Below, piece by piece: positions 3,745 through 20,078 of a stretch of DNA of 64,000 nucleotides. The number at the start of each line of letters is the position of its first letter. Within the stretch, counting starts at the first letter, position 1. Both the position numbers and the translations under genes were made by a program. The DNA is from an uncultured Trueperaceae bacterium (GTDB taxonomy: Bacteria > Deinococcota > Deinococci > Deinococcales > Trueperaceae). The DNA lies in contig CALKAI010000046.1 in NCBI GenBank assembly GCA_937983275.1, positions 1,800-65,799 on the forward strand, given 5' to 3'. The notes under the pieces were generated by a model. It was not told the DNA's origin. It worked only from the letters and a program-made list of their open reading frames with translations, and did not search any database.

Positions 3745-3824
3745 GCTGCTCCTTTCCACCACGGCGCAGTGACCATGTGTAACTTACACATTCTACACAC
3801 AACAGAAGGCCGGCCTTCAAGCGT

Positions 3825-4610: not shown

Positions 4611-4623
4611 ACCCGATGCTACT

Positions 4624-6867
4624 TCAGTCGTGGCCGGCCCCTGCACGCCTGGCCCTGCGCGCCACCGGCCGCGGCAGCCACCAGTTCCACCTGCCCGCGA
4701 TGAACATCATCGCCGGCACGAGTGCGAGCCGCACGAGCGTGGCGTCGAGAAGGACGGCGAGGGCCAGCCCCAGGCCCAGCGTCTTGATGAGCACGACGTT
4801 CGAGAAGATGAAGGAGGAGAAGACCACGATCATCACGGCAGCGGCCGAGGTTATTACACTCCCCGTCGAAGTGATCGCCGCCTTCACTGCATCGGCGTCC
4901 GAGAGGCCGTCCCGGTGGGCCTCGTGAATGCGGGCCACCAGGAACACCTCGTAATCCATCGACAGGCCAAAGACGATGGCGAACAGGAAGAGCGGGGCGC
5001 TCGTGTCGATATACCCCAGTCCTCCGGGGACGCCAAACAGCGAACCCAGTACGCCAGCCTGGAATATCAGCGTGATGATTCCGTAGGCCGCCGTGACCGT
5101 GAGGGTGTTCAGCAGTATCGACTTGAGCGGGATGAGGATGGAGCGGAAGGCTAAGCCCAGGACGATGAGGATCCCCAGGTAAACGAGCCCGACGGCGAGG
5201 GGGAAGGAGTCGTAGAGGTAGTTGGCCCACTCTGCCTCGAACAGCAGGGTCCCGCCGGCCAGTACGGTCACACCAAGGCCGCGTGCCACATCGGCGATCT
5301 CCGAACGCAGCTCGGCAACCTGCCCGGGCACGAGATTGCCTAGCGGCAGCAGGGTTACCAGGGCGTAGCGGCCGCTCTCGCTGACAGTCGCGCTCACCAG
5401 TTCGCCCAGCTCGCTGTTCAGCGCGCTCTCCTGGGTGGCGTAATACTGGTAGAGGAAGAGCGGCGGCACCCCGGTGCTGCTGCTCATTGCCGAGACTGCC
5501 TCGCCAACCGACGGCAGCTCCTGGGCCGTCCGGGTGAATTGCGACAGGCGCCTCTGGTTAGAGACGTTATAGAAGCCCTCGTCGCCGAAGTCGACGATGA
5601 GTTCGACCGGCTTTATGAGCCCCTCCAGGCCAAGCCCCTCGAGTGCCTCCACCACCTGCCGGCTGTCGGTCGATGCATTCAGCCCCCTCGCGCCCGGATC
5701 GGCAACCTGCATGCCTGTGGCGGGAGCGCTGAGCAGCAGCAGCACCAGTACGCCACCCGTCGCCCAGGCCCAGGGCCTCGCCAGGACCGTCTGCGCACGC
5801 CTGCGCCAGAAGGTGCGACTGCGCATGCCCGGCTTTCGCCTCGTGATCTTGCCCAGGTTCACCCGCTCCCCCAGCAGCGCCAGCAGGGCTGGCAGGACAG
5901 TGGTGTTGACGAGCACGCTGATAACGAGCACCAGCATGGTGGAGACCCCGATCGAGCGGATGAATGGCAGCGGCGGGATGAGCAGCGAGGCCAGGGCGAT
6001 GAGCACCGTCAGGCCGCTGAACGTGACCGCCTTCCCGGCGGTCCGTGAGGTCACGTAGGCCGCCCGCTCGGGGCTTAACCCGTTGCGCAGCTCCTCGCGG
6101 AAGCGGTTGACCATCAGGAGCGCGTAATCGATCCCGGTGGCCAGGCCAAGCATCGTGACGACCGTCTGGGCGAACACGGCGAAGCTCATGAACTGGCCCA
6201 GCAGGAAGAGCAGGGCAAACGACAGGATTATCGAGACCACCGCCATGAGCAGCGGCAGGGCCGATGCCATCAGGGCGCCGAAGGCCACCGCCAGGACCAG
6301 CAGGGAGAGGGGCAACCCGTAGACCTCTGCCCTCGTTGCATCGCTTACGCTGATCGCCTCGAGCTCCTGGCCGGTAGCGGGACCGCCGGCCAGCCAGAAG
6401 TTGAGCTCGGGCGCCTGCTTGACGGCTGTGCGCATGGCGGCCGCCAGCTGCTGGTTGTGGCGCCGGTCTTCGCTCGAGATCGTGATCAGGGAGACGGTCA
6501 TGTGGCCGTCCTCGCCCACCAGGTCGTAACTGCCGGAGTTGCGGTGGTCGACTACCGTACCCACGCCGGAAATGCCCTGCAGGGCATCGACCGCGCGCTG
6601 GTAGGGAAGGTCGAAGCCCGGCTCGCCCACCCTGTGCTCCTCGCTGCGGGTGAGGAGGATGACGTTCTGCCCGTCTCCGCGATTGAACTCCGACTCCAGC
6701 AGCCTCTGAACCTGCGACGGAACACTTTCGGCCGGAATCGATGGCTGGGCGTCGAGGACCTCTCCGACACGGAGCGCGTAGGGGACCGCGAGCACCACCA
6801 GTGCTGCCCAGATGGACAGAATCAGGCGCGGGCGGGTACTAAGCAGCTTGGCAAGACGGGCGTGCAC
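4624..6867 (-). CDS. MMPL-family (RND superfamily) membrane transporter
   Basis: The 747-aa protein has two blocks of about 6 TM helices separated by soluble loops. The MMPL-type repeat motif is seen at GIDYALLMVNRFREEL and GLSMDYEVFLVARIHEA. Confidence 0.88.
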   Translation of the reverse strand: MHARLAKLLSTRPRLILSIWAALVVLAVPYALRVGEVLDAQPSIPAESVPSQVQRLLESEFNRGDGQNVILLTRSEEHRVGEPGFDLPYQRAVDALQGISGVGTVVDHRNSGSYDLVGEDGHMTVSLITISSEDRRHNQQLAAAMRTAVKQAPELNFWLAGGPATGQELEAISVSDATRAEVYGLPLSLLVLAVAFGALMASALPLLMAVVSIILSFALLFLLGQFMSFAVFAQTVVTMLGLATGIDYALLMVNRFREELRNGLSPERAAYVTSRTAGKAVTFSGLTVLIALASLLIPPLPFIRSIGVSTMLVLVISVLVNTTVLPALLALLGERVNLGKITRRKPGMRSRTFWRRRAQTVLARPWAWATGGVLVLLLLSAPATGMQVADPGARGLNASTDSRQVVEALEGLGLEGLIKPVELIVDFGDEGFYNVSNQRRLSQFTRTAQELPSVGEAVSAMSSSTGVPPLFLYQYYATQESALNSELGELVSATVSESGRYALVTLLPLGNLVPGQVAELRSEIADVARGLGVTVLAGGTLLFEAEWANYLYDSFPLAVGLVYLGILIVLGLAFRSILIPLKSILLNTLTVTAAYGIITLIFQAGVLGSLFGVPGGLGYIDTSAPLFLFAIVFGLSMDYEVFLVARIHEAHRDGLSDADAVKAAITSTGSVITSAAAVMIVVFSSFIFSNVVLIKTLGLGLALAVLLDATLVRLALVPAMMFIAGRWNWWLPRPVARRARRAGAGHD

Positions 6868-6916
6868 CGTACCAACCTACCCGTAGGGAAGCCGAGGCAT
6901 ATGAGAAGCTCTATGA

Positions 6917-7657
6917 TCAGACACCGACGAACCGCTCGATCTCTTCGCGCGCGCCGGGTTCCGAAGCCGTCACGGACCCCGCCCAGCGACCATCGCGCAG
7001 GAACAGGATCCGGTTGGCAGTGAGCGCGGCCTTCAGGTCGTGGGTGACCATCACGACCGTCCAGCCCTGCTCATCCACGCCGCTGCGCAGCAGGTCGAGG
7101 ACCTCCTGGCCCGTTTCGCTGTCCAGATTGCCGGTGGGCTCGTCGGCGAGGATCACGACCGGATCGTTGATGAGCGCCCGCGCTATGGCTACGCGTTGCC
7201 GCTGGCCACCGGAAAGCTGCTTGGGCCGGTGCTGCAGCCGGTTGCTGAGGCCCAGCCGCGCCGCCAGCCTGTCCAGCCGCTCCCTGGCACCCTCCCGGTT
7301 GCCCGCCACCTCGGCAGGCAGCAGGATGTTCTCCAGCGCCGTCAGGTTGGGTATCAGTTCGAAGGTCTGGAACACGAAGCCCAGCTGCTCGCGACGCATG
7401 CGCGTCAGCTCGTCATCGTCTAGGCCTGAGGCCGAGACACCCCCGACGATCACCTCACCCGAATCGGGCACCTCGAGGAGGCCCAGCAGGTGCAGGAGCG
7501 TGCTCTTGCCGGACCCGGAGGCGCCCATTACGCTGACGAACTCGCCCGGTTCGACGGCGATATCGACCGAGTCGAGAGCCACCACCGTCTGTTCGCCCAG
7601 CCTGAACCTCTTGTTCAGATTACGGCCCTCGATCGCGTAGGTTTTCTGTGCACACAT
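6917..7657 (-). CDS. ABC transporter ATP-binding protein, MacB/LolD-like
   Basis: Walker A GASGSGKST, signature LSGGQRQRVAIARAL and Walker B VILADEPTGNLD are present. Confidence 0.92.
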   Translation of the reverse strand: MCAQKTYAIEGRNLNKRFRLGEQTVVALDSVDIAVEPGEFVSVMGASGSGKSTLLHLLGLLEVPDSGEVIVGGVSASGLDDDELTRMRREQLGFVFQTFELIPNLTALENILLPAEVAGNREGARERLDRLAARLGLSNRLQHRPKQLSGGQRQRVAIARALINDPVVILADEPTGNLDSETGQEVLDLLRSGVDEQGWTVVMVTHDLKAALTANRILFLRDGRWAGSVTASEPGAREEIERFVGV

Positions 7658-7666
7658 AAGACTGAT

Positions 7667-10231
7667 CTACTCCGAATTGCCGAGTGCCAGCACGGGAGGC
7701 AGGGAGGCCGCACGTCTGGCGGGAAAGTAGGACGCTGCCAGGCCAATGATGGGCGAGGCGAGGAAGGCGATGAGAATCAGGCCCCACGGGTAGTGTGGCG
7801 AGATGGCGAAGCCTGTGATGGCTGCGGCGCCCGCCGTGATCACGTGGGCAAGCAGCAGGCCGGCTAGCACGCCCAGTACCGTTCCGACCAGCAGGATAAC
7901 CGAGCCCTCGGCGGTGATGACCCTGGCGACACCCGCGCGGGTAAGGCCAAAGGCGCGCAGGACGGCCAGCTCATACTTGCGGCCCGACAGGTTCATGCCC
8001 AGGGTATTGGCTACCCCCAGGGCGGCGATGAACACCGCCAGCGCGAGCAGGGCGTTGGTCGTCACGAAGGTGCGCTGGGTCAGCTCCAGGATCGACGCCC
8101 GGTAGTCCTGATTGAGAGTTACATCCAGGTAGAGGTCGGGGAAGGCGGCCAGCAGGTCTTCGCGCGCCTGCGCCGGATCGACCCCCTCTTCGACCAGCAT
8201 CACGAACAGGTCAGGTGATCCCCCGCCGAACAGCTCCATGTCGTTGATCGACGCCACCGCGGCCTCCCCGCCGCCGGTAAAGTCGACGATCACACCGCCC
8301 ACGGGGAACTCCCGGAAACCCTCGCTGGTGCGCAAGGAGACCGTTTCGCCCTGGTTGACGTTGAACCTGTCGTGGATCGTGTTGGCGACGAGGACGTTCC
8401 CGCCCTCGAGCAGTGCCCGGTAGCCGCTCTCGTCGTCTCCCTGACCGGGGATGTACTGGAAGCGGCCAAAACCGGCCCCGGGCTCGAAGCGCGCCGGATC
8501 CACCAGCACCAGGGCGATGCTGCGCTGCCTGAACTCGCCTTCCGGATCGAACCGCACCACGCGCAAGCCCGCTCCCGAGGCAACGCGTATCCCGGGAACG
8601 GCAGCCGTCACCTGCTCCTCGAAGTCGGCGGGGAAGTGGACGGGGGAGGTCACGAACAGGTCTCCCAGGATCGTGGTGTCCACCCACTCCTCGATCGCCT
8701 GGTTGATGCCCGCCACCATCGCGCCCACGCCTATGGTGAGCCCCAGGCCCACCACGACGGACCCGATCGCCACGCCGTTGCGGGGTGCGTTCCGCTCCGC
8801 GAACGAGGCGCCCAGCCGGCCGGCCGGGCCAAAGACGCGTACCAGGAGTCCGCGCAGCAGGCCCAGGACCGGCTTCAGCAGCCCCGGTGTCGCCAGGGTT
8901 ATGCCGAAGAAGAGCAGGCACATCGCCAGCGCGGCACCCAGCAGCGCCAGACTGCCCTCCCAGGGGAGCAGTGCCACTACCACACCCGTGGCGACGGCCC
9001 CCCAGCCGAGCAGCACCGCTCCCCGCCTGGGTTCGAACTCGTCGGACCGCCGCAGTGCGGTAAGCGGTGGTGTTTGCGACGCTGCCCGCGCGGGGAGGTA
9101 ACCGGCCAGCATGGCCACGCCCACACCTGTCAGTGCGGCGGGCAGCACGCTCTGCAGCGGGAACACGAGCGTCCTGAACTCGATCCCCAACACCAGGGCG
9201 TTGAGCCTCGTGATTACGTAGGCGAGCAGCACACCCAGGAGGAGTCCCGCGATCACGCCCAGCAGGCTCACCACCGCGGCCTCGTAGAGCGCTATGCGCT
9301 GCACCTGGCCGCGCGTCAGGCACAGCGTGCGCAGCAGGGCATACTCCCTCTTGCGCTCCACGACCGCCGCCATGAAGGTGTTGTAGGCCATGAAGCCGCC
9401 CAGCGCCATAAGGGTGATCGCAAGGATCGTCAGGCCCGCCTGAATCGTGTCCACTACCCCGGTGGCGATATTGCCGGCACCGGCCGGGTGAGTGACGGTG
9501 TAGTCGACCCCCAGCTGGTTGGCCAGCCGGTCCTGTACCTGAGCCGTCGGCTGGCGGCCGGTGAGCTGAAGTTCTATGTGGCTGGCCCGGCCCGGGAGCC
9601 TGAGCAGCTCCTGGAGGTCGGGCAAGGGAACGACCGCCACGCGTCCGCCGTTCGTAGATGCGAAGGCGTATCCGTCGTCGAGCAGCCCCGTTATCTGCAG
9701 CTCGAACGAACCGAGCTGGCCCACGAAGGTAACCGTGTCACCAACCTCGATTCCGCGGCCGCGCGCGAAGTCGCCGCCTATCGCCGCGCCGTAGCTGCCG
9801 GGCTGCGGGAGCGCACCCTCGCTGATGCGCACCGGCGGGTTCGCGGCCTCGTCGAGGCGGCGACCGGATATCTGGAAGCCGGAGTCGACTCCGGGGATGA
9901 TGGAACTCTCATGCTCCTGGACTTCCCGCTCCGGTTCGGCCCGCGTGTTCAGCACGGGCACCGCTTGGGCGATGTCGGGATCGCCCTCCAGGCGTCCCAG
10001 GATGTCTTCGATGTCCAGGACTGCCCGCCCCTCGAGGCCCGGCGCGATCAGCAGGTCGGCGCCGCCCGAGGCGGCAGAGAGGGTACTGGCAACGTTCGCT
10101 TCCACGTTGTCGCCGATGGAGAGCGTGGCCAGTACCGCCGCGATGCCTATGGCTACACCTACGACCGTAGCAGCGGTGCGCCACGGGTGGCGCAGCAGGT
10201 TACGTACGGCTAGCCGCAAGAGCATCGGCAC
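7667..10231 (-). CDS. ABC transporter permease with duplicated FtsX/MacB-type domains
   Basis: The 854-aa protein begins LRLAVRNLLRHPWRT. It has two FtsX-like four-helix modules, each followed by a large extracytoplasmic loop. It ends 9 nt upstream of the ATPase gene. An alternative ATG start lies at 10225. Confidence 0.88.
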   Translation of the reverse strand: MPMLLRLAVRNLLRHPWRTAATVVGVAIGIAAVLATLSIGDNVEANVASTLSAASGGADLLIAPGLEGRAVLDIEDILGRLEGDPDIAQAVPVLNTRAEPEREVQEHESSIIPGVDSGFQISGRRLDEAANPPVRISEGALPQPGSYGAAIGGDFARGRGIEVGDTVTFVGQLGSFELQITGLLDDGYAFASTNGGRVAVVPLPDLQELLRLPGRASHIELQLTGRQPTAQVQDRLANQLGVDYTVTHPAGAGNIATGVVDTIQAGLTILAITLMALGGFMAYNTFMAAVVERKREYALLRTLCLTRGQVQRIALYEAAVVSLLGVIAGLLLGVLLAYVITRLNALVLGIEFRTLVFPLQSVLPAALTGVGVAMLAGYLPARAASQTPPLTALRRSDEFEPRRGAVLLGWGAVATGVVVALLPWEGSLALLGAALAMCLLFFGITLATPGLLKPVLGLLRGLLVRVFGPAGRLGASFAERNAPRNGVAIGSVVVGLGLTIGVGAMVAGINQAIEEWVDTTILGDLFVTSPVHFPADFEEQVTAAVPGIRVASGAGLRVVRFDPEGEFRQRSIALVLVDPARFEPGAGFGRFQYIPGQGDDESGYRALLEGGNVLVANTIHDRFNVNQGETVSLRTSEGFREFPVGGVIVDFTGGGEAAVASINDMELFGGGSPDLFVMLVEEGVDPAQAREDLLAAFPDLYLDVTLNQDYRASILELTQRTFVTTNALLALAVFIAALGVANTLGMNLSGRKYELAVLRAFGLTRAGVARVITAEGSVILLVGTVLGVLAGLLLAHVITAGAAAITGFAISPHYPWGLILIAFLASPIIGLAASYFPARRAASLPPVLALGNSE

Positions 10232-10259
10232 CCGACCAGTCTATTACGCAATGCCCCGG

Positions 10260-11261
10260 TTACTCGACGGACCGCTTGTCCACACGCCTGGCGCCCAGAA
10301 GCACGAGACCGCCAACCACGGGACCTATCAGGAGGTAGATGTAGTGCTGGAAGATGCGCCACAGGAGGATCGACATGGAGAGCGAGCTGGAGCTCACGTG
10401 GCCCCGCAACGCCAGGCTCATCACGCCCTCCTGGTAGCCACTGGCGCCCGGGGTGGGCACGAGGAACGCGAACGCATGGAATACCACTTGGCTGGCGTAG
10501 ACGACCACGTGGTTGGCCGACTGCGCCAGCGCGAGTACGACCAGGTTGAGGACCAGGAAGTAGGGCACCCGGGCCAGTGCCGAGAGCACGTGGAAGCCCA
10601 GGTGCCAGTGCCAGGGCCGGGCAGAGTAAACCGCCCCCGCCACCTGCAGATCTGCAAGAAACGAGTCGATCTTCGGCTTGAAGCGGCGCAGCAGGGGGAG
10701 GCTCGACAGCTTCCCGACGAGACGGATTGCAACGGGCAACCGGAACACCAGCAGGTAGCTGAGCCCGATTGCCAGGAGCGAGAGGACCGTTACCAGCAGC
10801 CCCGCCTGCGCGAACGGCAGTGTCACGCCCGCCGCCTTGAGCACGAAGAAGGAGGTTGGCACCGCCCAGGCGAAGAACGCGAGGTCGCCAACCATGCACA
10901 TGACTGCAACCGCCAGGGCCTGGTCGAACGAGAGGCCAAAGCGGTGGAGGATGAGGGTTATGCCGATCGAGTTGCCGCCGCCGGCCGGCGTCGCGGCCGC
11001 GCTGAAGCTGCCCATCACGTGCGTCTGGATCCCCTCCAGGAGGTTTGTACTGCGCCGCGACTGGCGGGTGAGGTAGTTGATCCGCAGGCCGGCCAGCAGC
11101 CAGCCGGCCAGGATGACCGCAACGATGAGGGACAGGGACCTGACGGTGAGGGTGTCGACAGCGCGGATCGCATCGCGGCTGAAGTCGTCGGGGGCGATCA
11201 GGTAGAGCGCCAGCACGCCCAGAAGCAGGGACACCACTACTGCCAGCAGCAGCCTCTTCAC
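10260..11261 (-). CDS. Flippase-like polytopic membrane protein (LPG_synthase_TM / UPF0104-like)
   Basis: The ORF is a polytopic hydrophobic protein. I prefer the GTG at 11261 because it forms a GTGA overlap with the upstream glycosyltransferase stop codon. The longest ORF starts at 11294. Confidence 0.7.
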   Translation of the reverse strand: MKRLLLAVVVSLLLGVLALYLIAPDDFSRDAIRAVDTLTVRSLSLIVAVILAGWLLAGLRINYLTRQSRRSTNLLEGIQTHVMGSFSAAATPAGGGNSIGITLILHRFGLSFDQALAVAVMCMVGDLAFFAWAVPTSFFVLKAAGVTLPFAQAGLLVTVLSLLAIGLSYLLVFRLPVAIRLVGKLSSLPLLRRFKPKIDSFLADLQVAGAVYSARPWHWHLGFHVLSALARVPYFLVLNLVVLALAQSANHVVVYASQVVFHAFAFLVPTPGASGYQEGVMSLALRGHVSSSSLSMSILLWRIFQHYIYLLIGPVVGGLVLLGARRVDKRSVE

Positions 11262-12481
11262 GCCCGATGCAGCGAGCCTACTCCCTCGCCGCAAACCTCC
11301 CTTGCCGGTGTTCTCTCCTGGGCGTAATGGCTTATGTAGCGGGCGATCCTTTCAGCCATTCCCGGGAAGTCCAGCGCGGCCGTCTTCGCCTTTATCTCGT
11401 CCAGCCGCTCGGGGTTCGCCCGCAGTTCGGCCACCACGCCGGGCAGCTGCTCTACGGGCGTGTACCCGCCCAGGTCGTTGCGCTCGAGCATGGCCAGCAG
11501 CTTGTTCTCGGCCATGCCGAAGGTGTTGGGAGCGAAGAGGGGCCTGCCGACGGCGAGAGTCTCGTAGACGGTTGCCGGGCCCGTCTTGCCCACGACGACA
11601 TCGGCGGCGGCCAGGTAGGTGGCGACGTCGTTCACGAAGCCCACCACCCGCAGGTTGGGCCGCTCGCGGGCGAGCTGCTCCAGCTGCTCCTTAAGACGCT
11701 CGTTGCGGCCGGCGATCACCAGCACGACGTTCTCCGGGTCGTCGGTGAGGATCTTCGCGATTTCGAGCGACTCGCCGCCCACGCCCTCGCCTCCGAGGGA
11801 GACGAGGCACACGAAGCCGGGCGGCAGCTGCAACTCCTCGCGCGCGGCGCTCTTGCTGGGCGGGTTGAGGAACTGCTCGCGGACCGGGTAGCCGACCACG
11901 TCTACCCGGTCCGCAGGAAGGCCAAAGCGGATGAGCAGGTCGCGGGAGACGTGCGAGGCGACGATGAAACGCTCGGCCTGCGGGTCGGCCCACAATGCAT
12001 TGGCGTTCATTGTCGAGGTCTCGAAGTTCAGGACCGGCACGCGCAGCCCAAACTCCCGCTGCGCAAGCGTCATTGCGACGGTAAGCCAGCCATGGTTGGC
12101 GACCACGAGGGCGGGATCCTGCTCGTTCAGCACCTGAGCGGCCTTGCGCGCAAACGAGCGCAGCAGGGCCCTGTGAAAACCGATGCTGCCTGCCGGAAAG
12201 GCATCGAGCAGGCGCTGCCCCCACACGATCGTCCAGGGGTTCTCCAGCGCCCGGCGCCAGCCGGCCTTGTGCCGCCTGTCCAGCCGCTCGAAGCCGTACT
12301 CGGGCATCGGCTCGAACACCTTCGGTTCGAACCGGTTCCCCTCGTGCCGGGTCACGGCCTGCGCCATCGCGGTTGCCGTGCTCACGTGCGACCCGCCGGC
12401 TGCGATGGTGGTGAACAGGATGGAGTCGAGCGCCTGGCTCGACCCTTCACCGGATGCGGCTGTAGTAATCACCTGACTCAT
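11258..12481 (-). CDS. Glycosyltransferase, MGDG-synthase/UgtP-like (GT28-type lipid glycosyltransferase)
   Basis: The N-terminus ILFTTIAAGGSHVSTATAMAQAV resembles the MGDG_synth N-domain. The C-terminal GT-B half reads LVSLGGEGVGG...VVGKTGPATVYETLAVGRPL. I prefer the ATG at 12481; the longest ORF starts at 12502. Confidence 0.75.
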   Translation of the reverse strand: MSQVITTAASGEGSSQALDSILFTTIAAGGSHVSTATAMAQAVTRHEGNRFEPKVFEPMPEYGFERLDRRHKAGWRRALENPWTIVWGQRLLDAFPAGSIGFHRALLRSFARKAAQVLNEQDPALVVANHGWLTVAMTLAQREFGLRVPVLNFETSTMNANALWADPQAERFIVASHVSRDLLIRFGLPADRVDVVGYPVREQFLNPPSKSAAREELQLPPGFVCLVSLGGEGVGGESLEIAKILTDDPENVVLVIAGRNERLKEQLEQLARERPNLRVVGFVNDVATYLAAADVVVGKTGPATVYETLAVGRPLFAPNTFGMAENKLLAMLERNDLGGYTPVEQLPGVVAELRANPERLDEIKAKTAALDFPGMAERIARYISHYAQERTPAREVCGEGVGSLHRA

Positions 12482-12529
12482 GCTTTCCTTCTCACTTTCC
12501 ACCCCGACGGATCGACTGTCCGTCTACTG

Positions 12530-13543
12530 TCACTCACTGTCCCGCAGCCAGCGGCTCAGCTGCACATCGTTGCGCAGCGACCATGCCAGCCCTTCGCGCC
12601 AGCCGTAGGCGGGCCTGTACCCCAGCTCCTCGCGGGCGTGGCTTATGTCGAAGTGAACGTCCCTGGCCATGAGGCGGCCCTGGTAAGCGGTTAGCGGCGG
12701 CTGGCTGTCGGTGGCGAAGAACCTGAAGAGGCCCTCGACACCGGCACCCGCTCCACGCGCAAGCCAATCGGGCAGAGAATAACCCACCGCGCCCCCCACC
12801 AGCCCCGCAAGCTCGCCCAGCACCTCGCGCCAGGTGGGTGCCCCCTCGTCGGCGATGACGTAGCTGCGCCCGGCAATCCCCGGAGTAAGCGCGGCAAGCT
12901 CGATCCCCGCTACCAGGTTGAGGACGAACGCAGTGTTCAGGACGGCTTTGCCGCCGTTGACCAGCGGCAGTCTTCCGGTCCGCAACGCAGCGACCACCCG
13001 CGCGAGCTGCGGGTCCCTGCTGCCGAACGGCCACAGCCCCGGGCGAACGATGACGGCCTCGCCTGGGTAGCTCTCCACGAGTTGCTCTGCCCCGATCTTG
13101 GAGAGGGCGTAGGCCGGTGAGGTCGCGTCACGCGGCGTGGTGCGCGGTGAGGCGTTCACGAAGCCGTTGTAGCGGTGTACGGCCACGGAGGAGATGAGCA
13201 CGAAGCGGGGGCGTTCGCCCGCCTGGGCCTCCTCGAGCAGGTTCGCCGTACCCTCCACGTTGGTGCGCAGGAAGGGCGCGAGGGGCCCCCAGTCGCGGGC
13301 CAGGGCAGCGGCGTGCACGACGACGTCCACGCCCTCCGTGACGCCCTGCAGCTGTTCGCCGTCGGCGATGTCCCCCCGGACGATCTCCAGGCGGTCGCTC
13401 TCCAGGACGGCGTTCAGGTTGCCCAGGTCGCCCCAGGGGGAGACCAGGCCCCGCACCCGGTGCCCCTGACGCAACAGATGCTCGACAAGGTGGCTGCCTA
13501 TGAAGCCGTGCGCTCCCGTGACGAGGAAAGTGTGTGCGTTCAT
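12530..13543 (-). CDS. NAD-dependent epimerase/dehydratase family (extended SDR) protein
   Basis: The Rossmann motif VTGAHGFIGSHLVEHL and the catalytic YxxxK (YALSKIGAE) are present. The ATG overlaps the upstream stop codon (ATGA at 13540-13543). Confidence 0.88.
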   Translation of the reverse strand: MNAHTFLVTGAHGFIGSHLVEHLLRQGHRVRGLVSPWGDLGNLNAVLESDRLEIVRGDIADGEQLQGVTEGVDVVVHAAALARDWGPLAPFLRTNVEGTANLLEEAQAGERPRFVLISSVAVHRYNGFVNASPRTTPRDATSPAYALSKIGAEQLVESYPGEAVIVRPGLWPFGSRDPQLARVVAALRTGRLPLVNGGKAVLNTAFVLNLVAGIELAALTPGIAGRSYVIADEGAPTWREVLGELAGLVGGAVGYSLPDWLARGAGAGVEGLFRFFATDSQPPLTAYQGRLMARDVHFDISHAREELGYRPAYGWREGLAWSLRNDVQLSRWLRDSE

Positions 13544-14298
13544 GGGCCGCCGAATGCCAGGTGTCCCGACTGCAACAGCGAAAAGAAGTCGGTTGACACG
13601 CCCAGCGCCAGGTGGATCAGGAACACGTAGAGGACCGACCGGGTGCGCCAGGCGATGACCCCGAAGAGGAGGCCGGCGGGGACGGCGGCGATCGTCTCGG
13701 CCAGCGGCTTGCCCAGGTGCAGCAGGGCCGAAGCGACGGTCTGGAGCCAGAGCGCGCCCCTCCAGCCCATGCTGGGGGCAAGCCCGCGCAGCAGCAGGCC
13801 GCGGTAGAAGAACTCGTAGGCGAGGTAGTAGAGGGCGTAGATCGCGCTCCAGGAGAGGAACGCCAGCCAGCTGCCACCGGCCCAGGCGCCCGCCCAGGGG
13901 TAGGTGAAGCGGATGCCGCTGTCGAAGCTGCCCAGAAATCCGATGAGCACGGCTGCGGGGATGCCGAGGAGCAGGGCCTGCCGCCCCAGGCGGCGGTCAC
14001 CTGCGCTGAGGCCCAGGCTGCGCCCGTCGAGCTCCAGGGGCCTGGCCAGCAGCAGCGGTATGAGGAAGAGCAGCAGGAGCGCCCACAGTACGGAGCGCAG
14101 GCCGGTAAGCGGATCGCGTGGCGTGCCGGGCAGGGGAGCCCCGAAGTACCAGTAGGCGATCTGCAGCAGCAGCGAAAGCGCCAGAATGGCCCAGGTCACG
14201 TTCCGGGAGCTGAATATCGCACTGAAATCCCGGCGCAGCGCAGGCAACAGGTTCAGGCGTTCTTCCTGGTCGTCGTGCTCGTCGTGCTGGCCGTTCAT
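13540..14298 (-). CDS. CPBP-family (CAAX/Abi-like) intramembrane metalloprotease-like protein
   Basis: Starting at MNGQHDEH (ATG 14298) gives a polytopic protein with CPBP-like motifs: YEFFYRGLL (EExxxR-like), ASALLHLGK and FLIHLALG. ATGA overlaps occur at both ends (14295-14298 and 13540-13543). The 401-aa track ORF is an Arg/Pro-rich over-extension. Confidence 0.75.
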   Translation of the reverse strand: MNGQHDEHDDQEERLNLLPALRRDFSAIFSSRNVTWAILALSLLLQIAYWYFGAPLPGTPRDPLTGLRSVLWALLLLFLIPLLLARPLELDGRSLGLSAGDRRLGRQALLLGIPAAVLIGFLGSFDSGIRFTYPWAGAWAGGSWLAFLSWSAIYALYYLAYEFFYRGLLLRGLAPSMGWRGALWLQTVASALLHLGKPLAETIAAVPAGLLFGVIAWRTRSVLYVFLIHLALGVSTDFFSLLQSGHLAFGGP

Positions 14299-15428
14299 AC
14301 CGCTTTCTGGTAGAGCCTGTACCTCTTGTAGAGGGTGGCTCCGGATACCTCGATCCCCCTGTTCATCGCGGTGTTCGTTTCCAGCACCCAGGAGCACTCG
14401 CCCTCCACCCAGCCCAGTTCGCGGGCCCGGCGGGCCGTCTCGTCGATGAGCAGCAGTTCGAAGCCGCGGCCGCGGAACTCCGGCAGCACGCCCAGGATGG
14501 GCATGCGCCCGCGGTTCACGTACCGGCGGCGCTGCAGGAGGCAAAGAATGCCGAACGGCAGCAGCCGGCCGCCTATCCTGCTGAACACCTGGTTGATGTC
14601 TGGAATGGTCACGGAGAGCCCGGCCACCTCGCCGTCGACCTCCACGAAAAGCACCAGGTCGGGCTCGAGGATGAGCTTGAGTTCGCTGATGAGCGCGTCG
14701 AACTCGGCCTCCGTGTACTTGACGAAGCCCCAGTTCTTCTCCCACGCCTCGTTGTAGATGCGCTTGAGTATCGCCGCGTCACGCTCCAGATTCTTCATGT
14801 CCGCGCCGCGAATGGTTACGTCCGGGTGCCGGCGCTTGACCCGCTGGGCGAGGCGGGCCAGCCGTTCGCTGGTGCCTTCGCCGACATCGAACTCCCAGGC
14901 GTAGAGGTCCATGGCCTTCCCGTAGCCGGCCGCCTCGACGTACCTGGGGTACTCGGGCGGGTTTTGCGGCATCATCACGTACGGCCGGGTATCGAACGCC
15001 TCCAGCTGGAAGCCGGAGCCGTCGTTCATGGACGGGTTCGCGGGTCCGCGCACCAGGGTACGGCCCAGCTGCCGGGCCCTGTCCTCCACCGTGCGGAGCA
15101 GGATTCCTGCCACCTCCTCGTCGCACGCTTCGAAGAAGCCGAAGAAGAGGAGGTTGTCGCCGTGCGTTGCATTGTGGTTGTCGTCGTCGATTGCCGCGAT
15201 CCGGCCCACCACCCGGTTCTCCCGCCAGGCCAGGTAGAGGTCCATTCGCGCGTGCTCAAAAAAGGGGTTCTTCCGCGGGTTGAACTTCTCCCATTCGCCT
15301 ATCAGCAGCGGCGGGACCCAATTGGGGTCTCCCCGGTACAGCTGGTAGGGGAACTCGATGAAGCGGCGCAAGCTGCTGCGCCCCTCGACCCGTTCCACCG
15401 TCACGCGGCCCATGGCGACACTCGTCAT
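14295..15428 (-). CDS. Large (377 aa) GNAT-like acyltransferase of unknown specificity
   Basis: The N-terminal block FIEFPYQLYRGDPNWVPPLLIGEWEKFNPRKNPFFEHA...VGRIAAIDD belongs to a widespread uncharacterised GNAT-related family. The C-terminal half looks acyl-CoA N-acyltransferase-like (GVLPEFRGRGFELLLI). Confidence 0.7.
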   Translation of the reverse strand: MTSVAMGRVTVERVEGRSSLRRFIEFPYQLYRGDPNWVPPLLIGEWEKFNPRKNPFFEHARMDLYLAWRENRVVGRIAAIDDDNHNATHGDNLLFFGFFEACDEEVAGILLRTVEDRARQLGRTLVRGPANPSMNDGSGFQLEAFDTRPYVMMPQNPPEYPRYVEAAGYGKAMDLYAWEFDVGEGTSERLARLAQRVKRRHPDVTIRGADMKNLERDAAILKRIYNEAWEKNWGFVKYTEAEFDALISELKLILEPDLVLFVEVDGEVAGLSVTIPDINQVFSRIGGRLLPFGILCLLQRRRYVNRGRMPILGVLPEFRGRGFELLLIDETARRARELGWVEGECSWVLETNTAMNRGIEVSGATLYKRYRLYQKAV

Positions 15429-15515
15429 TGCTACTCCCGCGCCGCCCCCGGCGATCCCCTGTCGATTGCAGAGCGAGGGCGCAGCCGCGGCAGCGGCCGC
15501 GCCGGCTGCACTACC

Positions 15516-16727
15516 CTAGCCGACCATGCCGAAGCGCCTGCCGACAGCCTCGAAGGCAGAGAGAAGGATGTCCAGCTGCTCATCGGTATGGTTCGCATTC
15601 ACGCTCGTCCTGATTATCGATTGCCCCTGCGGCACACCCGGAGGCAGCGCCGGAGTGGTGAACACGCCCTCCTCCCAGAGTGCCTTCCAGAAAAGCATGG
15701 TGAGGTCGTCGGGGCCAATCAGGACGGGAACGATGGGCGTTTGTGAGCCCAGCGTATCGAAGCCCAGGGAGTTTATGCCGTCCCGCAACTTGCGCACGTT
15801 GCGCCACAACTGATCGCGCAGTCCCGGTTCGCTCTGGATGATGTCGAGGGCCTTGAGCGCTGCAGCCATCTGCATCGCGGGGAGCGCTGCCGTGAAGATG
15901 AATGGCCGCGCTACGTGCTTGATGTAGTTGATGACCTCGCGGTCGCCGGCGGCGAAGCCGCCTACGGAGCCGAACGCCTTGGAGAAGGTCCCGACGATGA
16001 GGTCGACCTCGTCCTCGAGTCCGTAGTACTCGGCCGTCCCCCGGCCCCCTTCGCCCAGGATGCCGGTGGCATGAGCGTCATCGACGATGACCCTGGCGTT
16101 GTACTTTCGGGCGACAGCGACGATCTCCGGCAGTTTTGCAATGTGACCGCTCATGGAGAACACCCCATCGGTGACGATGATGCGGCCGCCCGGCCTTTCG
16201 ATGTCGCGCTGCAGGAGCCGCTCCAGCTGACCGATGTCGTTATGGTCGTACTTCCGCAGGGTGCCGAAGCCCAGGCGCGCGCCGTCGTACAGGCAGGCGT
16301 GATTCTCCCGGTCGAAGTAAAGGATGTCGTGCCTGCCGGAGAGCGCACTCAGGACGGACAGGGAGCCCAGGTAGCCTGCGCTGAACGTCAGGACCGACTC
16401 CTTGTTGAGGTACGTGGCGAGGTTCTCTTCCAGGGCCTCGTGAAGGCTCAGGGTGCCGGTCAGGAACCTCGAGCCGGTGCAACTCGTACCGAAGTCGTTG
16501 AGGGCGTCTCTGGCTGCACCCTTAAGGCGGGGGTCCTGGGTAAGTCCCAGGTAGTCGTTCGACCCGGTGATGACCATCTCCTGCCCATCGACGGTCACGG
16601 TGCCGCCATGCTGCGCGGCAATGGGCTTGAAGTACGGGTGCATTCCGGCGGCCTGCGCTTCGTCGGCCCGTTTGAATGCGTAGGCCTTGGCGAAGGCGTC
16701 CGCAGTCTCTTTCACCGGCATTTCCAT
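15516..16727 (-). CDS. PLP-dependent alpha-oxoamine synthase (serine palmitoyltransferase / BioF / Kbl family)
   Basis: Family motifs are present: SNDYLGL, DDAHATGILGEGGRG, the PLP-lysine motif GTFSKAFGSVGGF, and the C-terminus IIRTSVNANHTDEQLD. I prefer the ATG at 16727 (MEMPVKE). The longest ORF (to 16925) adds an implausible N-terminal extension. Confidence 0.9.
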   Translation of the reverse strand: MEMPVKETADAFAKAYAFKRADEAQAAGMHPYFKPIAAQHGGTVTVDGQEMVITGSNDYLGLTQDPRLKGAARDALNDFGTSCTGSRFLTGTLSLHEALEENLATYLNKESVLTFSAGYLGSLSVLSALSGRHDILYFDRENHACLYDGARLGFGTLRKYDHNDIGQLERLLQRDIERPGGRIIVTDGVFSMSGHIAKLPEIVAVARKYNARVIVDDAHATGILGEGGRGTAEYYGLEDEVDLIVGTFSKAFGSVGGFAAGDREVINYIKHVARPFIFTAALPAMQMAAALKALDIIQSEPGLRDQLWRNVRKLRDGINSLGFDTLGSQTPIVPVLIGPDDLTMLFWKALWEEGVFTTPALPPGVPQGQSIIRTSVNANHTDEQLDILLSAFEAVGRRFGMVG

Positions 16728-16938
16728 AACGGCAGAGGATCTCGCGGCAACTCGTTGTTTCTCAGGGGTATTGCTAATTTCAGACAAAAGGGCCTCCGCG
16801 CAGTTAAAGCAAGGCGCAATGTAGCAGTCTAACACGCGACCTGCTGCATGACTTATTCTGAGCAGCACCATTTCTACGGGTCCAATGGCTGTGCACTGAA
16901 TGTGACCGGCCCTTCCAGGGGCCAAACCTGTGCGGCAG

Positions 16939-16944
16939 TATAAT
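16939..16944 (+). promoter_or_regulatory. Consensus -10 box TATAAT 6 nt upstream of an in-frame GTG (16951); candidate leaderless promoter for the GNAT gene
   Basis: The sequence gcagTATAATcattatGTGaac was read directly. The box lies inside the longest-ORF prediction (start 16930), which argues for a downstream start. Confidence 0.45.
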
Positions 16945-16950
16945 CATTAT

Positions 16951-17562
16951 GTGAACACTCAACCTGAAGGGGGTGAGGACGTGCAACTCACGTCCGGGGG
17001 AGTTCTCACCAGGCCGGCCAGCGTTTCGGACGCACCCCTGGTACACGCTCTCTACCATGGCACTCCCAAGTATTTCGACATCATCTCCATCCCGGTGCCG
17101 ACGATTGCCGAGGTGGAGACCGACCTTGAAACTGCGATTCGCGATCACAGGCGGCACGTCGAACTGATCTTTGCCACACCCGACCTCTTCCTGCCCGGCT
17201 GGGAGATCGAAGACTTCCGGACCGGCAGGCAGGTTGTTGGCTACCTTGACTACAAGCTCGATTACCCTGAGGCCGGGGACGCGACCGTCAACCTCCTGCT
17301 GATACACAGCGCCGTCCAGAGCAACGGCATAGGCCGCCGTTGCGTCGAAGACCTGGAGGACCGCCTGCGTTCCCTCGGTGAGGTGAAACGGGTTCTCGCC
17401 AGCATCTTTGGCCAGAACACCAGGGCGCAACGGTTCTGGGAGCGGCTGGGGTACGAGTTCGCCATTGACGCCAAGCCGGTGCTTGACTGGTACGCTAAGG
17501 AGCTTCGCCCCGGCGGCGAGGGATTGAGCAGAAGCGTCGCGCCTGAGCACTCCCTGACCTAG
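16951..17562 (+). CDS. GNAT-family N-acetyltransferase
   Basis: The acetyl-CoA binding region LLLIHSAVQSNGIGRRCVEDLEDRL and the motif RAQRFWERLGYEF are present. The start is uncertain: GTG 16930 (longest), GTG 16951 (leaderless model), or GTG 16981 (preceded by GGGGGTGAGG). Confidence 0.7.
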   Translation: MNTQPEGGEDVQLTSGGVLTRPASVSDAPLVHALYHGTPKYFDIISIPVPTIAEVETDLETAIRDHRRHVELIFATPDLFLPGWEIEDFRTGRQVVGYLDYKLDYPEAGDATVNLLLIHSAVQSNGIGRRCVEDLEDRLRSLGEVKRVLASIFGQNTRAQRFWERLGYEFAIDAKPVLDWYAKELRPGGEGLSRSVAPEHSLT

Positions 17563-17698
17563 GCCGTCCGCGGGCAGTAAACAGGAAGTGCGCCCATGGC
17601 GGCCGTCTGGCCCGGTACGTTATCCTGCGACTGTTGAGACAGGTGCGGTCGCCATTCTGTGCTGGCGCGCGTTTGCATGTCATCGGAGGCAATCAGTA

Positions 17699-18256
17699 AT
17701 GATCAGTGTCACGGACCTACGCAACGGAACCAAGGTCGAGATGGACGGTGGGCTATGGGAGTGTCTGGAGTACCAGCACCAGAAGATTGGCCGCGGCGGC
17801 GCCAAGGTCGTAGCCAAGTTCCGGAACCTCGACAACGGCTCCATCGTTGAACGTACCTTCAACTCCGGTGAGAAGTTGCAGGACATCTTCATCGACTACA
17901 AGACGATGCAGTTCCTGTACGACGATGGGGATACCTACACCTTCATGGATCTAGAGACCTACGAGCAGCCCACCCTGTCGCGTGCGCAGATCGGCGACGC
18001 GGCAAAGTGGCTCAAGGAGAACCTCGAGGTGACCGTCGACTACTACGGCGACCGGCCCCTCAAGGTCACGCTCCCGAACATCATCGAGGTGAAGATCGTC
18101 GAAACCGATCCCGGCGTAAAGGGGGACACCGTGTCCGGTGGTTCCAAGCCGGCAAAGGTCGAGACAGGTGCCACCATCCATGTTCCCCTCTTCGTCGAGC
18201 CTGGCACCGTCGTACGGGTCGATACGCGCTCCGGCGAGTACCTGGGGCGTGTCTGA
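17699..18256 (+). CDS. efp: Translation elongation factor P
   Basis: [44 protein letters not shown]... is canonical EF-P. GGAGG lies 9-10 nt upstream of the ATG. Confidence 0.95.
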
Positions 18257-18732
18257 TGGACGTCAAGGACATCCGCAGACTGCTGGACGCGCTCACCAAG
18301 AGCGATATCGATGAGTTCAGCCTGGAAACCTCCGATTACAAGCTGAGCATTCGCCGCGGGAGCGCCAGCCTTCCCGGCCAGCCGGCGGTGGTTGCGCAGC
18401 AGGCAACCCCGGCGCAGAGTGCTCCTGCAGCAGCGCCGGAGCCCGAGCCCGCCAGTGCGGAGGCGCCCGCGCCGGCCCCGGCGAACGAGCGCCTGGTCGA
18501 GGTCAACGCGCCCATCGTGGGTACCTTCTACGCCGCACCCTCACCAGACTCGGAGCCGTACGTGAAGGTAGGCGACCGGGTGGAGCGCGGCCAGGTCCTG
18601 TGCATCATCGAGGCGATGAAGCTCATGAATGAGATAGAGGCCGAGGTCTCGGGGACGATCGAAGAGATCCTCGTTCGCAACGAGGACCCGGTCGAGTACG
18701 GGCAGGTCCTCTTCCGGATCGACCCGAGCTGA
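18256..18732 (+). CDS. accB: Acetyl-CoA carboxylase biotin carboxyl carrier protein
   Basis: The biotinyl-lysine motif [15 protein letters not shown] follows an Ala/Pro-rich linker. The ATG overlaps the efp stop codon (TGATG). Confidence 0.93.
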
Positions 18733-18740
18733 CAGGCCCA

Positions 18741-20078
18741 ATGTTCAAGAAGATCCTCATCGCTAACAGGGGAGAGATAGCCTTGCGCATCCTCAGGGCC
18801 GCCCGCGAGCTGGGCGTCAAGACGGTGGTCGCCTACTCGGAGGTCGATGAGCCGTCCCTGCCGGTGCTGCTTGCCGACGAATCCATCTGCATTGGCCCCG
18901 GCCCCGCCGGCAAGTCGTACCTGAACGTGCGCAACCTGCTGTCGGCAGCCACCCTGACAGGCGCCGAGGCGATCCATCCCGGCTACGGTTTTCTGGCAGA
19001 GAACGCCGAGTTCGCCCAGAAGTGCGAGGAGCACAACCTGGTCTTCATCGGGCCCACGCCGCAGAGCATCCGCTCGATCGGCGACAAGGCCAGCGCCCGC
19101 AGGCTGGCCCAGGAGGCGAACGTGCCGGTCACACCCGGCTCCGACCCACTTGCCGACCTGCCCGAGGCGATAGGTTTCGCGAAGGAGATCGGCTACCCGG
19201 TGATCCTCAAGGCTTCGGCCGGGGGCGGTGGCCGGGGGATGCGGGTGGTGCACTCTCCCGACGCCCTCGAGCGTGCCTTCATCGCTGCTCAGGAGGAGGC
19301 GCGCGCCGCGTTCGGAAACCCCGAGCTCTACATGGAGAAGTACCTGGAGGAGCCGCGTCACGTCGAGATCCAGGTGTTCGGCGACGGCAAGGGCAACGTC
19401 ATCCACTTCTTCGACCGCGACTGCTCCATCCAGCGGCGCTACCAGAAGGTACTCGAGGAAGCCCCCTCCCTGCTCGATCCGGACCTGCGCGCCCGCATCG
19501 CCGAGTCGGCGGTGCGCCTCGCCCGGCACATCAACTACCGTGGCGCAGGAACCTGCGAATATCTGGTGGACAGGGAAGGCAACTTCTACTTCTCGGAGAT
19601 GAACACCCGGATCCAGGTGGAGCACCCGGTCACCGAGATGGTCACCCGCTTCGACCTCGTGCAGGAGCAGTTGCGCGTGGCCGCCGGCGAGGCGCTGAGC
19701 ATTTCCCAGGAGGATGTTCGCGTTGAGGGCCACTCGATCGAGGTGCGGGTTAACGCCGAGGATCCGGACAACGACTTCCGACCAGCCGCCGGCACCATCA
19801 CTGACCTACACTGGCCCGGGGGGCCCGGCGTACGCGTGGACTCGCATGTTTACGAGGGGTACAAGATTCCCCCGAACTACGACAGTCTCGTCGCCAAGAT
19901 CATCGTCTGGGCGAAGACACGGGAGGAGGCGATCGCACGCATGCAGCGGGCACTGAACGAAACTGTGATCGAAGGGGTGAAGACGACGATCCCGTTCCAC
20001 CTGCGTGTGCTCGACAACGCCTTCTACAAGCGTGGGGCCATCTACACGAACTTCATTGCACGGAGAATGAATGAGTGA
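18741..20078 (+). CDS. accC: Acetyl-CoA carboxylase biotin carboxylase subunit
   Basis: MFKKILIANRGEIALRILRAARELG..., the ATP-grasp body, and EMNTRIQVEHPVTE are canonical. Confidence 0.96.
   Translation: MFKKILIANRGEIALRILRAARELGVKTVVAYSEVDEPSLPVLLADESICIGPGPAGKSYLNVRNLLSAATLTGAEAIHPGYGFLAENAEFAQKCEEHNLVFIGPTPQSIRSIGDKASARRLAQEANVPVTPGSDPLADLPEAIGFAKEIGYPVILKASAGGGGRGMRVVHSPDALERAFIAAQEEARAAFGNPELYMEKYLEEPRHVEIQVFGDGKGNVIHFFDRDCSIQRRYQKVLEEAPSLLDPDLRARIAESAVRLARHINYRGAGTCEYLVDREGNFYFSEMNTRIQVEHPVTEMVTRFDLVQEQLRVAAGEALSISQEDVRVEGHSIEVRVNAEDPDNDFRPAAGTITDLHWPGGPGVRVDSHVYEGYKIPPNYDSLVAKIIVWAKTREEAIARMQRALNETVIEGVKTTIPFHLRVLDNAFYKRGAIYTNFIARRMNE

Follow-up and report, generated by a model that had tools for sequence, protein, structure and literature searches.

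A cluster of putative lipid genes was analysed in a 64,000-nucleotide stretch of contig CALKAI010000046.1 (hereafter the window, to which all positions refer) from an uncultured member of the Trueperaceae, a family of the Deinococcota. Six intact open reading frames without internal stops lie on the minus strand between positions 10260 and 16727. In their order of transcription they encode a 403-aa α-oxoamine synthase (AOS) resembling serine palmitoyltransferase (Spt; 15516-16727), a 377-aa putative tandem-GNAT N-acyltransferase of the bacterial ceramide synthase (bCerS) family (14295-15428), a 252-aa CPBP/Rce1-like polytopic membrane protein (13540-14298), a 337-aa extended short-chain dehydrogenase/reductase (SDR) similar to OleD and HpnA (12530-13543), a 414-aa GT-B lipid glycosyltransferase (GT) of the GT28/MGDG-synthase/UgtP-like kind (11258-12502) and a 333-aa flippase-like membrane protein of the UPF0104/LPG_synthase_TM type (10260-11261). 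We read these genes, with a probability of roughly 60%, as part of an operon for a ceramide-type sphingolipid in Trueperaceae that includes steps of reduction, glycosylation and export. Formation of the ceramide backbone by the first two enzymes is well supported by comparisons at the sequence level; glycosylation and export of the ceramide would follow from the company these two genes keep.

Gene order and extent of the operon

The six genes, their order, strand and coordinates had been proposed in an earlier note made from the sequence alone, and the reading of the open frames bears them out together with three 4-nt overlaps of stop and start codons. These join the GNAT and CPBP genes (ATGA, 14295-14298), the CPBP and SDR genes (ATGA, 13540-13543) and the genes of the GT and the flippase-like protein (GTGA, 11258-11261). 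The remaining intergenic gaps measure 87 nt between the AOS and GNAT genes and 27 nt between the SDR and GT genes. The family labels given to the six genes in that note likewise agree with the Pfam and NCBIfam matches obtained here.

The end of the operon at position 10260, as the note had drawn it, did not hold. After a gap of 28 nt the minus-strand run continues with a gene for a duplicated MacB/FtsX-type ATP-binding cassette (ABC) permease of 854 aa (7667-10231), followed 9 nt later by that of a 246-aa MacB/LolD-like ABC ATPase (6917-7657; PF00005) and after another 49 nt by that of a 747-aa RND lipid transporter of the MMPL family (4624-6867), transport genes which had been overlooked. All gaps downstream of the bCerS gene are thus 49 nt or shorter along the run. 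The longest open reading frame of a 273-aa enoyl-CoA hydratase on the same strand (3825-4646; PF00378, 207 bits) overlaps the MMPL gene by 23 nt. It is possibly the last gene of the operon, its membership being uncertain; synteny can be followed as far as the related sequences reach, two of which (L082 and L084) end inside the MMPL gene. A scan of positions 3500-17600 placed the sole terminator-like match outside the coding DNA of the run just past the hydratase gene, at 3805-3818 on the minus strand. This hairpin is weak evidence, as the scan found four terminator-like matches compared to 7.4 in shuffled sequences. Because the tight same-strand run extends past position 10260 to this hairpin, the transcription unit may comprise nine, perhaps ten genes. 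The promoter presumably lies in the intergenic region 16728-16929, between the AOS gene and the divergent gene upstream of it. Promoter and Rfam scans of the operon region, this intergenic region included, returned no sigma-70-type promoter match and no Rfam family.

The same gene set was found in the same order in the independent Trueperaceae genomes L001, L082, L084, L088 and L089, so that its conservation as a unit, another expectation of the earlier note, was confirmed within the lineage. In the two metagenome-assembled genomes (MAGs) L082 and L084, both Trueperaceae, the cluster proteins are 55-78% identical, and the flanking genes for EF-P, AccB and AccC are also shared. The pair of adjacent AOS and bCerS genes is conserved well beyond this family, across phyla.

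The two predicted enzymes of the ceramide backbone

It was not until 2021-2022 that the bacterial route to sphingolipids through Spt, bCerS and the ceramide reductase CerR was elucidated, and what is known of its distribution comes mostly from surveys of genes. In Caulobacter crescentus, the three steps are assigned to CCNA_01220 (Spt), CCNA_01212/CC_1154 (bCerS) and CCNA_01222/CC_1164 (CerR) (Olea-Ozuna 2021 and Stankeviciute 2022, cited in PMC11087976 and PMC11324152). The latter two were compared with the window proteins through their orthologues from Sphingomonas wittichii, and not through the Caulobacter sequences themselves: Swit_3908 is the orthologue of bCerS (45% identity, E 5e-109) and Swit_3897 that of CerR (PMC11324152, table S2B). 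The corresponding region of S. wittichii RW1 (L081) was reached from the PDB sequence of the Spt of this organism.

The 377-aa GNAT-like protein aligned end to end with Swit_3908 in BLASTP, with 33% identity over 379 aa (E 3e-64), and a profile of 48 of its close homologues matched the same protein over 369 columns with an hhalign probability of 100% (E 5.8e-59). Full-length similarity was also detected to YghO of Escherichia coli (36% identity, E 2e-75). An AlphaFold model of good quality (pLDDT 89.7) showed a tandem-GNAT fold whose nearest solved structures are tandem-GNAT acyltransferases (2wpw, 7q3a, 5kf1 and MshD), and a sequence search of solved structures gave no match, nor did any NCBIfam model. 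The protein lacks a hydrophobic segment, which fits the bCerS of Caulobacter, reported to be a cytoplasmic, peripheral membrane protein (PMC11087976). Members of this very large family occur in many phyla, and a bCerS-like gene directly adjoins an AOS gene of the Spt clade in about 51 of 80 genome loci, which likewise come from many phyla. The closest homologues with a named source, for the GNAT-like protein as for the SDR, all come from Trueperaceae or Truepera, in agreement with the earlier note, which had taken the source to be Deinococcus-Thermus-like. The relationship to Caulobacter bCerS suspected in the earlier note therefore proved to be true family membership. That the protein belongs to the bCerS family over its full length, and is predicted to N-acylate a long-chain base, is well supported by these comparisons.

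The AOS matched PF00155 with 201 bits. Its best NCBIfam model was the serine palmitoyltransferase of the Cytophaga-Flavobacterium-Bacteroides (CFB) type (NF047600, 427 bits, cut-off 640), and two further Spt models also responded (NF047599, 388 bits, cut-off 500; NF047603, 307 bits, cut-off 670). These models are clade-specific, built for the CFB group, Betaproteobacteria and Alphaproteobacteria, and the Spt of S. wittichii, run as a control, passed its own model. Among solved structures, the Spt of Sphingobacterium ranked first (361 bits), followed by Thermus BioF/Kbl (295 bits) and Sphingomonas Spt (281 bits); E. coli Kbl (260 bits), two cysteate acyltransferases (257 and 244 bits) and BioF (205 bits) scored lower. 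The catalytic lysine (TFSK) of this PLP-dependent fold, the PLP-stacking histidine of the NHA motif, the Asp/His pair (DDAH) and the carboxylate-binding C-terminal arginine (IRTS) align with those of Sphingobacterium and S. wittichii Spt.

A neighbour-joining tree was calculated from 66 sequences: the window AOS, 60 AOS from related loci, the Spt of S. wittichii and S. multivorum, BioF and Kbl of E. coli and BioF/Kbl of Thermus. The window AOS fell into a clade with the two reference Spt and, L012 excepted, all AOS encoded next to bCerS. This clade was separated from BioF, Kbl and Thermus BioF/Kbl in 227 of 300 bootstrap replicates (76%), a moderate support, from a distance tree calculated without references for SulA/CapB, HemA and CqsA; within the clade, the AOS of Trueperaceae-type clusters formed a subclade in all 300 replicates. 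The AOS thus grouped with Spt, as the earlier note had anticipated, and by sequence it would be a serine palmitoyltransferase rather than a BioF or Kbl, with L-serine as the most likely amino acid.

That the AOS might be a housekeeping BioF or Kbl with unrelated neighbours is suggested only by scores sizeable for any AOS (370 bits for the NCBIfam bioF model, 359 bits for Kbl). Both remain under their cut-offs and under the leading Spt models, the tree places the window protein apart from both enzymes, the adjacency to bCerS is conserved across phyla, and tblastn searches of the 64-kb window with E. coli proteins revealed neither bioB, bioC or tdh nor a second AOS. This absence agrees with the note's remark that no biotin or threonine genes are nearby, and together with the structure-match scores and the tree it practically rules out a BioF or Kbl identity. 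At 38149-39252, a distance of 21 kb from the operon, a class-III aminotransferase is encoded that shares 32% identity (130 bits) with E. coli BioA. As the other bio genes are absent from the window, it is probably not BioA, and there is no sign of a bio operon.

A different amino acid substrate was considered as well: alanine or glycine would yield a 1-deoxy-type base, cysteate a capnine-type sulfonolipid, and the product would be an N-acylated aminolipid akin to a classical ceramide without being one. The specificity of AOS-family enzymes is not readable from the sequence here, the window AOS stays below all Spt equivalog cut-offs, and its identity to Thermus BioF/Kbl (42%) nearly equals that to Sphingobacterium Spt (44%). 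Ceramides of the 1-deoxy type are moreover described within the bacterial pathway (PMC11334938). The lower scores of the solved cysteate acyltransferases in comparison to Spt and the position of the AOS in the tree argue for serine all the same, as does the GT of the operon, which fits a C1 hydroxyl group that only serine provides. We hold a substrate other than serine to be improbable. The aminolipid named as an alternative in the earlier note stands only with regard to this choice of amino acid, and nothing favours it.

The single exception in the tree deserves mention as a case of its own. In a gammaproteobacterial MAG (L012:2386-4618), a bCerS-like gene adjoins an AOS outside the Spt clade, on the side of BioF and Kbl; judged from this placement, the bCerS-like protein there may work with a different amino-ketone.

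The reductase position and the CPBP gene

The extended SDR of the operon matches the Pfam families PF01370 (Epimerase), 3Beta_HSD and GDP_Man_Dehyd. It carries the NAD(P)-binding Rossmann motif GxxGxxG (GAHGFIGSH) and the catalytic serine and YxxxK motifs (ISSVAV and YALSK), and 40 homologues share without exception the residues G10, G13, G16, S118, S119, Y145 and K149. The best NCBIfam models cover the full length of the protein with weak scores, OleD with 128 and HpnA with 129 bits at cut-offs of 580 and 368 bits, respectively. SdmB follows among the further models, and HpnA, OleD and SdmB are the same families that lead the list for the CerR orthologue Swit_3897. OleD is a 2-alkyl-3-oxoalkanoate reductase; its reduction of a long-chain β-keto lipid is the type of reaction that C3 of a keto-ceramide would require. 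The window SDR differs from OleD and HpnA in scoring far below their cut-offs and in having no ole or hpn genes nearby.

The earlier note had regarded the SDR as a relative of CerR. As an orthologue within the CerR subfamily, the assignment was not upheld: in the direct comparison with Swit_3897 only 67 bits over 256 aa were obtained, and an hhalign probability of 99.6% over 238 columns is what would be expected for any two extended SDRs. The SDRs that adjoin Spt and bCerS in 41 other loci and in Rubrobacter reach 100-157 bits over their full length with Swit_3897, the window SDR giving only 50-107 bits in the same comparison. Those of Rubrobacter and of the Trueperaceae locus L002 are of the CerR type as well and 31-36% identical to the window SDR. 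Within the loci sampled, the window-type SDR has so far been seen in Trueperaceae-type clusters only, and all seven source-named proteins among its 120 best database relatives belong to Trueperaceae or Truepera.

The SDR is encoded in one operon with the AOS and the bCerS-like protein, and this core of AOS, bCerS, CPBP and SDR genes recurs in L001, L082, L084, L088 and L089. The SDR occupies the slot that CerR-type SDRs fill in the 41 other loci, and no canonical CerR is encoded within the 64-kb window. Conversely, the stretches sequenced of L002 and of the Rubrobacter plasmid described below encode a canonical CerR but no SDR of the window type. We infer that the SDR is a non-orthologous replacement of CerR which would reduce the 3-keto group.

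Alternatively, the SDR might provide the sugar donor for the GT as a nucleotide-sugar epimerase, dehydratase or decarboxylase; the 3-keto group would then be reduced by a CerR encoded elsewhere or be retained. Besides the position outside the CerR subfamily and the Epimerase and GDP_Man_Dehyd matches, gene order speaks for such a role, as the SDR gene lies directly upstream of the GT gene in the window, L001, L082, L084 and L088. In L089, however, AOS, bCerS, CPBP and SDR genes occur together without any GT gene nearby, which indicates that the SDR goes with the ceramide core and not with the GT. The structural model (pLDDT 93.5) retrieved generic extended SDRs, nearly all of them nucleotide-sugar enzymes, and did not discriminate a lipid reductase from a sugar-nucleotide enzyme; since solved structures are dominated by sugar enzymes, this ranking says little. 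The lipid-acting HpnA and OleD models, in contrast, outrank those of sugar enzymes over the full length of the protein, and the CerR orthologue ranks alike. Window-type SDR and canonical CerR furthermore replace each other in related clusters. A sugar-nucleotide enzyme is therefore considered unlikely in this position, and replacement of CerR remains the preferred interpretation of the SDR.

Between the bCerS and SDR genes lies the gene of the CPBP protein, which exceeds the cut-off of PF02517 (40.8 bits) and has about five hydrophobic segments. This position is shared by the window, L082, L084, L088 and L089. In all six Trueperaceae-type clusters in which the CPBP protein was aligned, its gene directly follows that of bCerS, mostly with 4-nt overlaps; L002 has it there with no SDR gene after it, and a homologue occupies the same place in L001, outside the alignment. 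The E..R, H and H residues of the protease motif are largely kept across the aligned clusters. We know of no sphingolipid pathway that includes a CPBP/Rce1-like protein, and its role as a membrane partner of the SDR is a guess. A 452-aa protein in L087 (P0325, 4807-6165), in which the C-terminal part of CPBP is joined to an SDR, was set aside as evidence of a physical link; with a coverage of 5x and a broken AOS/bCerS region, it is probably an assembly or frameshift artefact and not a natural fusion.

Proposed glycosylation and transport, and related systems

The GT exceeded the cut-offs of PF13692 (36.9 bits) and PF04101 (35.4 bits), which represent the C-terminal nucleotide-sugar domain of GT-B enzymes, and stayed below that of PF06925, the N-terminal lipid-acceptor domain (MGDG_synth, 22.5 bits, cut-off 25). 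Its score with the NCBIfam model for diglucosyl-diacylglycerol synthase (96 bits) is far under the cut-off. The best solved relatives, in weak matches, are the processive diacylglycerol β-glucosyltransferase UgtP (9wde, 64 bits) and MGD1 of Arabidopsis (4wyi, 55 bits), both GT28 enzymes with lipid acceptors, so that the designation as an MGDG-synthase-like lipid GT is retained from the earlier note. The GT shares the GT-B fold with these enzymes, both of which act on a membrane lipid. It differs from them in matches far below the equivalog cut-offs and in the proposed acceptor, which would be ceramide instead of diacylglycerol. One or two GT paralogues occur at the same position in L001, L082, L084 and L088.

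The last of the six genes was likewise correctly described as flippase-like, as its product passes the thresholds of PF03706 (73 bits, cut-off 33.4) and TIGR00374 (53.5 bits, cut-off 43.2). It reaches 59.9 bits with the equivalog model of the glucosaminyl-phosphatidylglycerol (GlcN-PG) flippase (NF053789, cut-off 320) and has about seven hydrophobic segments. With MprF-type and GlcN-PG flippases it has in common the polytopic membrane topology and a gene beside that of a lipid-modifying enzyme; unlike MprF it lacks a fused synthase domain, and the proposed cargo is a (glyco)sphingolipid. Homologous genes lie in or near the cluster in L002, L082, L084 and L088, and in L083 directly after the AOS-bCerS pair. 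In L088, a Trueperaceae-like genome of 4.0 Mb, a gene for UDP-galactopyranose mutase adjoins that of the flippase-like protein (13745-15978), a few kb from the AOS-bCerS-CPBP-SDR-GT block, with insertion sequence elements between them. The mutase hints at a galactofuranose head group.

The permease of the ABC transporter unites two MacB_PCD and two FtsX domains in one protein, with weak matches to LolC/E and MacB models. It is found at the same position in L001, L082, L083 and L084 with 54-70% identity, and the ATPase is its constant partner in these loci (MacB 225 bits, LolD 219 bits, both under the equivalog cut-offs). FtsX permease domains, MacB periplasmic core domains and an adjacent ATPase together amount to a make-up of the MacB/LolCDE type. 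The MMPL protein matches PF03176 with 286 bits and the MmpL3 and HpnN models weakly; its gene comes next after the ATPase gene in the window, L082 and L084, and L002 carries one close to the cluster. L083 gives the clearest indication that transport and ceramide genes belong together: there, AOS, bCerS, flippase-like protein, FtsX permease and ABC ATPase follow each other in this order with nothing between them.

The operon might nevertheless consist of two functional halves, with the AOS-bCerS(-CPBP-SDR) part making a ceramide and the genes of the GT, the flippase-like protein, the ABC transporter and the MMPL protein merely co-located or co-regulated. No glycosphingolipid would then be formed, and the second half would serve general envelope lipid export or glycerol-based glycolipids, which are typical of Deinococcota. 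The diacylglycerol acceptors of the closest characterised GT relatives suit this division, as do the four-gene core of L089, which has no GT, flippase-like or ABC gene nearby, and the lack of a GT in L083. In the 80 loci compared, GT, CPBP, flippase-like, ABC and MMPL genes accompany Spt and bCerS in Trueperaceae-type clusters only. Against a division stand the tight coupling of the genes, with the 4-nt overlap of the GT and flippase-like genes and gaps of 27-49 nt, the recurrence of the same order in L001, L082 and L084, and the placement of flippase-like and ABC genes directly after bCerS in L083 with no other lipid gene between. Two unconnected halves are thus conceivable and, in our judgement, rather unlikely. 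As some related clusters do without them, the genes of the GT, the flippase-like protein, the ABC transporter and the MMPL protein are best regarded as accessory to the ceramide core.

For the preferred reading, a single ceramide-type pathway, the following route is proposed. From a long-chain acyl thioester and an amino acid, L-serine being the most likely one, the Spt-like AOS would form a 3-keto long-chain base by condensation. The tandem-GNAT protein would N-acylate this base with a second acyl chain to 3-keto-dihydroceramide, in the order proposed for Caulobacter. The OleD/HpnA-like SDR, possibly with CPBP as membrane partner, would then reduce the 3-keto group to a hydroxyl group, and the GT28-type enzyme might transfer a sugar from a nucleotide sugar onto the ceramide at the cytoplasmic face. 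In the final and weakest part of the scheme, the UPF0104 protein may carry the lipid across the inner membrane, and the MacB-type ABC transporter and the MMPL protein may extract it and hand it towards the outer membrane. Trueperaceae are diderm, and their phylum is generally held to lack classical lipopolysaccharide. The most far-reaching version, in which this single operon encodes the whole route to an outer-membrane glycosphingolipid in Trueperaceae, with a CPBP-plus-SDR module displacing CerR, a dedicated flippase, a MacB-type extractor and an MMPL exporter, is regarded as doubtful.

Several observations weigh against a ceramide operon of this kind. The AOS is below every NCBIfam equivalog cut-off for Spt and its placement in the distance tree is moderately supported. 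The similarity of the SDR to the CerR orthologue is low, its fold resembles nucleotide-sugar epimerases and dehydratases just as closely, and a canonical CerR could be encoded outside the 64-kb window. Diacylglycerol, and not ceramide, is the acceptor of the characterised enzymes nearest to the GT. GT, flippase-like, ABC and MMPL genes are missing from L089, and GT, SDR and CPBP genes from L083. A literature search finally linked neither Deinococcota nor Truepera to sphingolipids beyond incidental co-mentions.

Compared to the Caulobacter pathway, from which the order of condensation, N-acylation and reduction was adopted, the window shares an Spt-like AOS, a tandem-GNAT protein with full-length homology to bCerS and an extended SDR. 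It differs in that the cluster comes without a dedicated gene for an acyl carrier protein (ACP) or acyl-ACP synthetase, its reductase is no orthologue of CerR, a CPBP gene is inserted between the bCerS and SDR genes, and all genes are found in one compact operon. UPF0104, MacB-type ABC and MMPL proteins are the transport candidates here instead of LptF2, LptG2 and LptC2. The Spt/bCerS/CerR pathway and two core enzymes of known kinds are thus familiar ground; new are the apparently replaced reductase, the CPBP insertion and the coupled GT, flippase-like, ABC and MMPL genes. The earlier note had also drawn a connection to the alkylamine lipids of Deinococcus and Thermus, for which neither the literature nor the gene content offers support.

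The closest cultured relative in the collections searched is an uncharacterised cluster of Rubrobacter radiotolerans RSPS-4 (L090, NZ_CP007515.1, plasmid 1, RRADSPS_RS14055-14070, positions 14230-19822 of the record). Its AOS and bCerS-like protein are 72% and 63% identical to those of the window and are encoded in the same order. In contrast to the window, the SDR is of the canonical CerR type: its identity is 53% with the SDR of L002, which is CerR-like, and 31% with that of the window. The next gene belongs to the LTA-synthase family and takes the place of a GT gene, and CPBP, flippase-like, ABC and MMPL genes are lacking. The cluster resides, again unlike that of the window, on a 191-kb plasmid of a cultured, radiation-resistant, Gram-positive actinobacterium. 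These similarities suggest a horizontal transfer between Rubrobacter and Trueperaceae. The same bCerS-like gene was also observed on a contig of a Rubrobacter MAG (L017).

In E. coli K-12, yghO (b2981; L091:7044-8216) is annotated as a putative DNA-binding transcriptional regulator. On the basis of its similarity to the window protein, we assign YghO to the bCerS tandem-GNAT family rather than to the regulators. In the strain 2011C_3361 (L092), yghO is located, as the bCerS gene is in the window, beside an spt gene, and with it genes for an ACP, an epimerase-family SDR and an acyl-AMP ligase; unlike the window, this locus holds extra copies of lptF and lptG in a Caulobacter-type architecture of proteobacterial sphingolipid genes. 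The yghO-spt locus of K-12 is interrupted by IS5. The yghO gene was detected at a coverage of at least 80% in 4527 of 5426 complete E. coli genomes, a count that refers to yghO and not to the spt cluster.

If the proposed reading is true, Deinococcota would be added to the phyla with bacterial sphingolipid synthesis, and the reductase step would have passed to another SDR subfamily in combination with a CPBP membrane protein. Another phylum with the core genes would be no surprise; the replaced reductase and the transport candidates are of specialist interest. Gene surveys have inferred the pathway in nine phyla and Spt-like proteins in up to 40, according to PMC11334938; the main text of that paper does not mention Deinococcota, although its figures and large supplementary tables may list the phylum. 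In Caulobacter, the flippase and the transporter of sphingolipids are still unidentified (PMC11087976). The flippase-like protein, the MacB-type ABC transporter and the MMPL protein, coupled here to Spt and bCerS, represent testable candidates for the flipping of sphingolipids and their transport to the outer membrane. Tractable systems are at hand with the related genes on the plasmid of the cultured R. radiotolerans and with E. coli, which has the same acyltransferase family in YghO.

Upstream of the AOS gene and divergent from it, a small single-domain GNAT of 210 aa is encoded on the plus strand (16930-17562; PF00583, 43.8 bits), whose link to the operon is unproven. It is found at the same position in L001, L002, L082, L083 and L084, and a DJ-1/GATase gene takes its place in L088 and L089.

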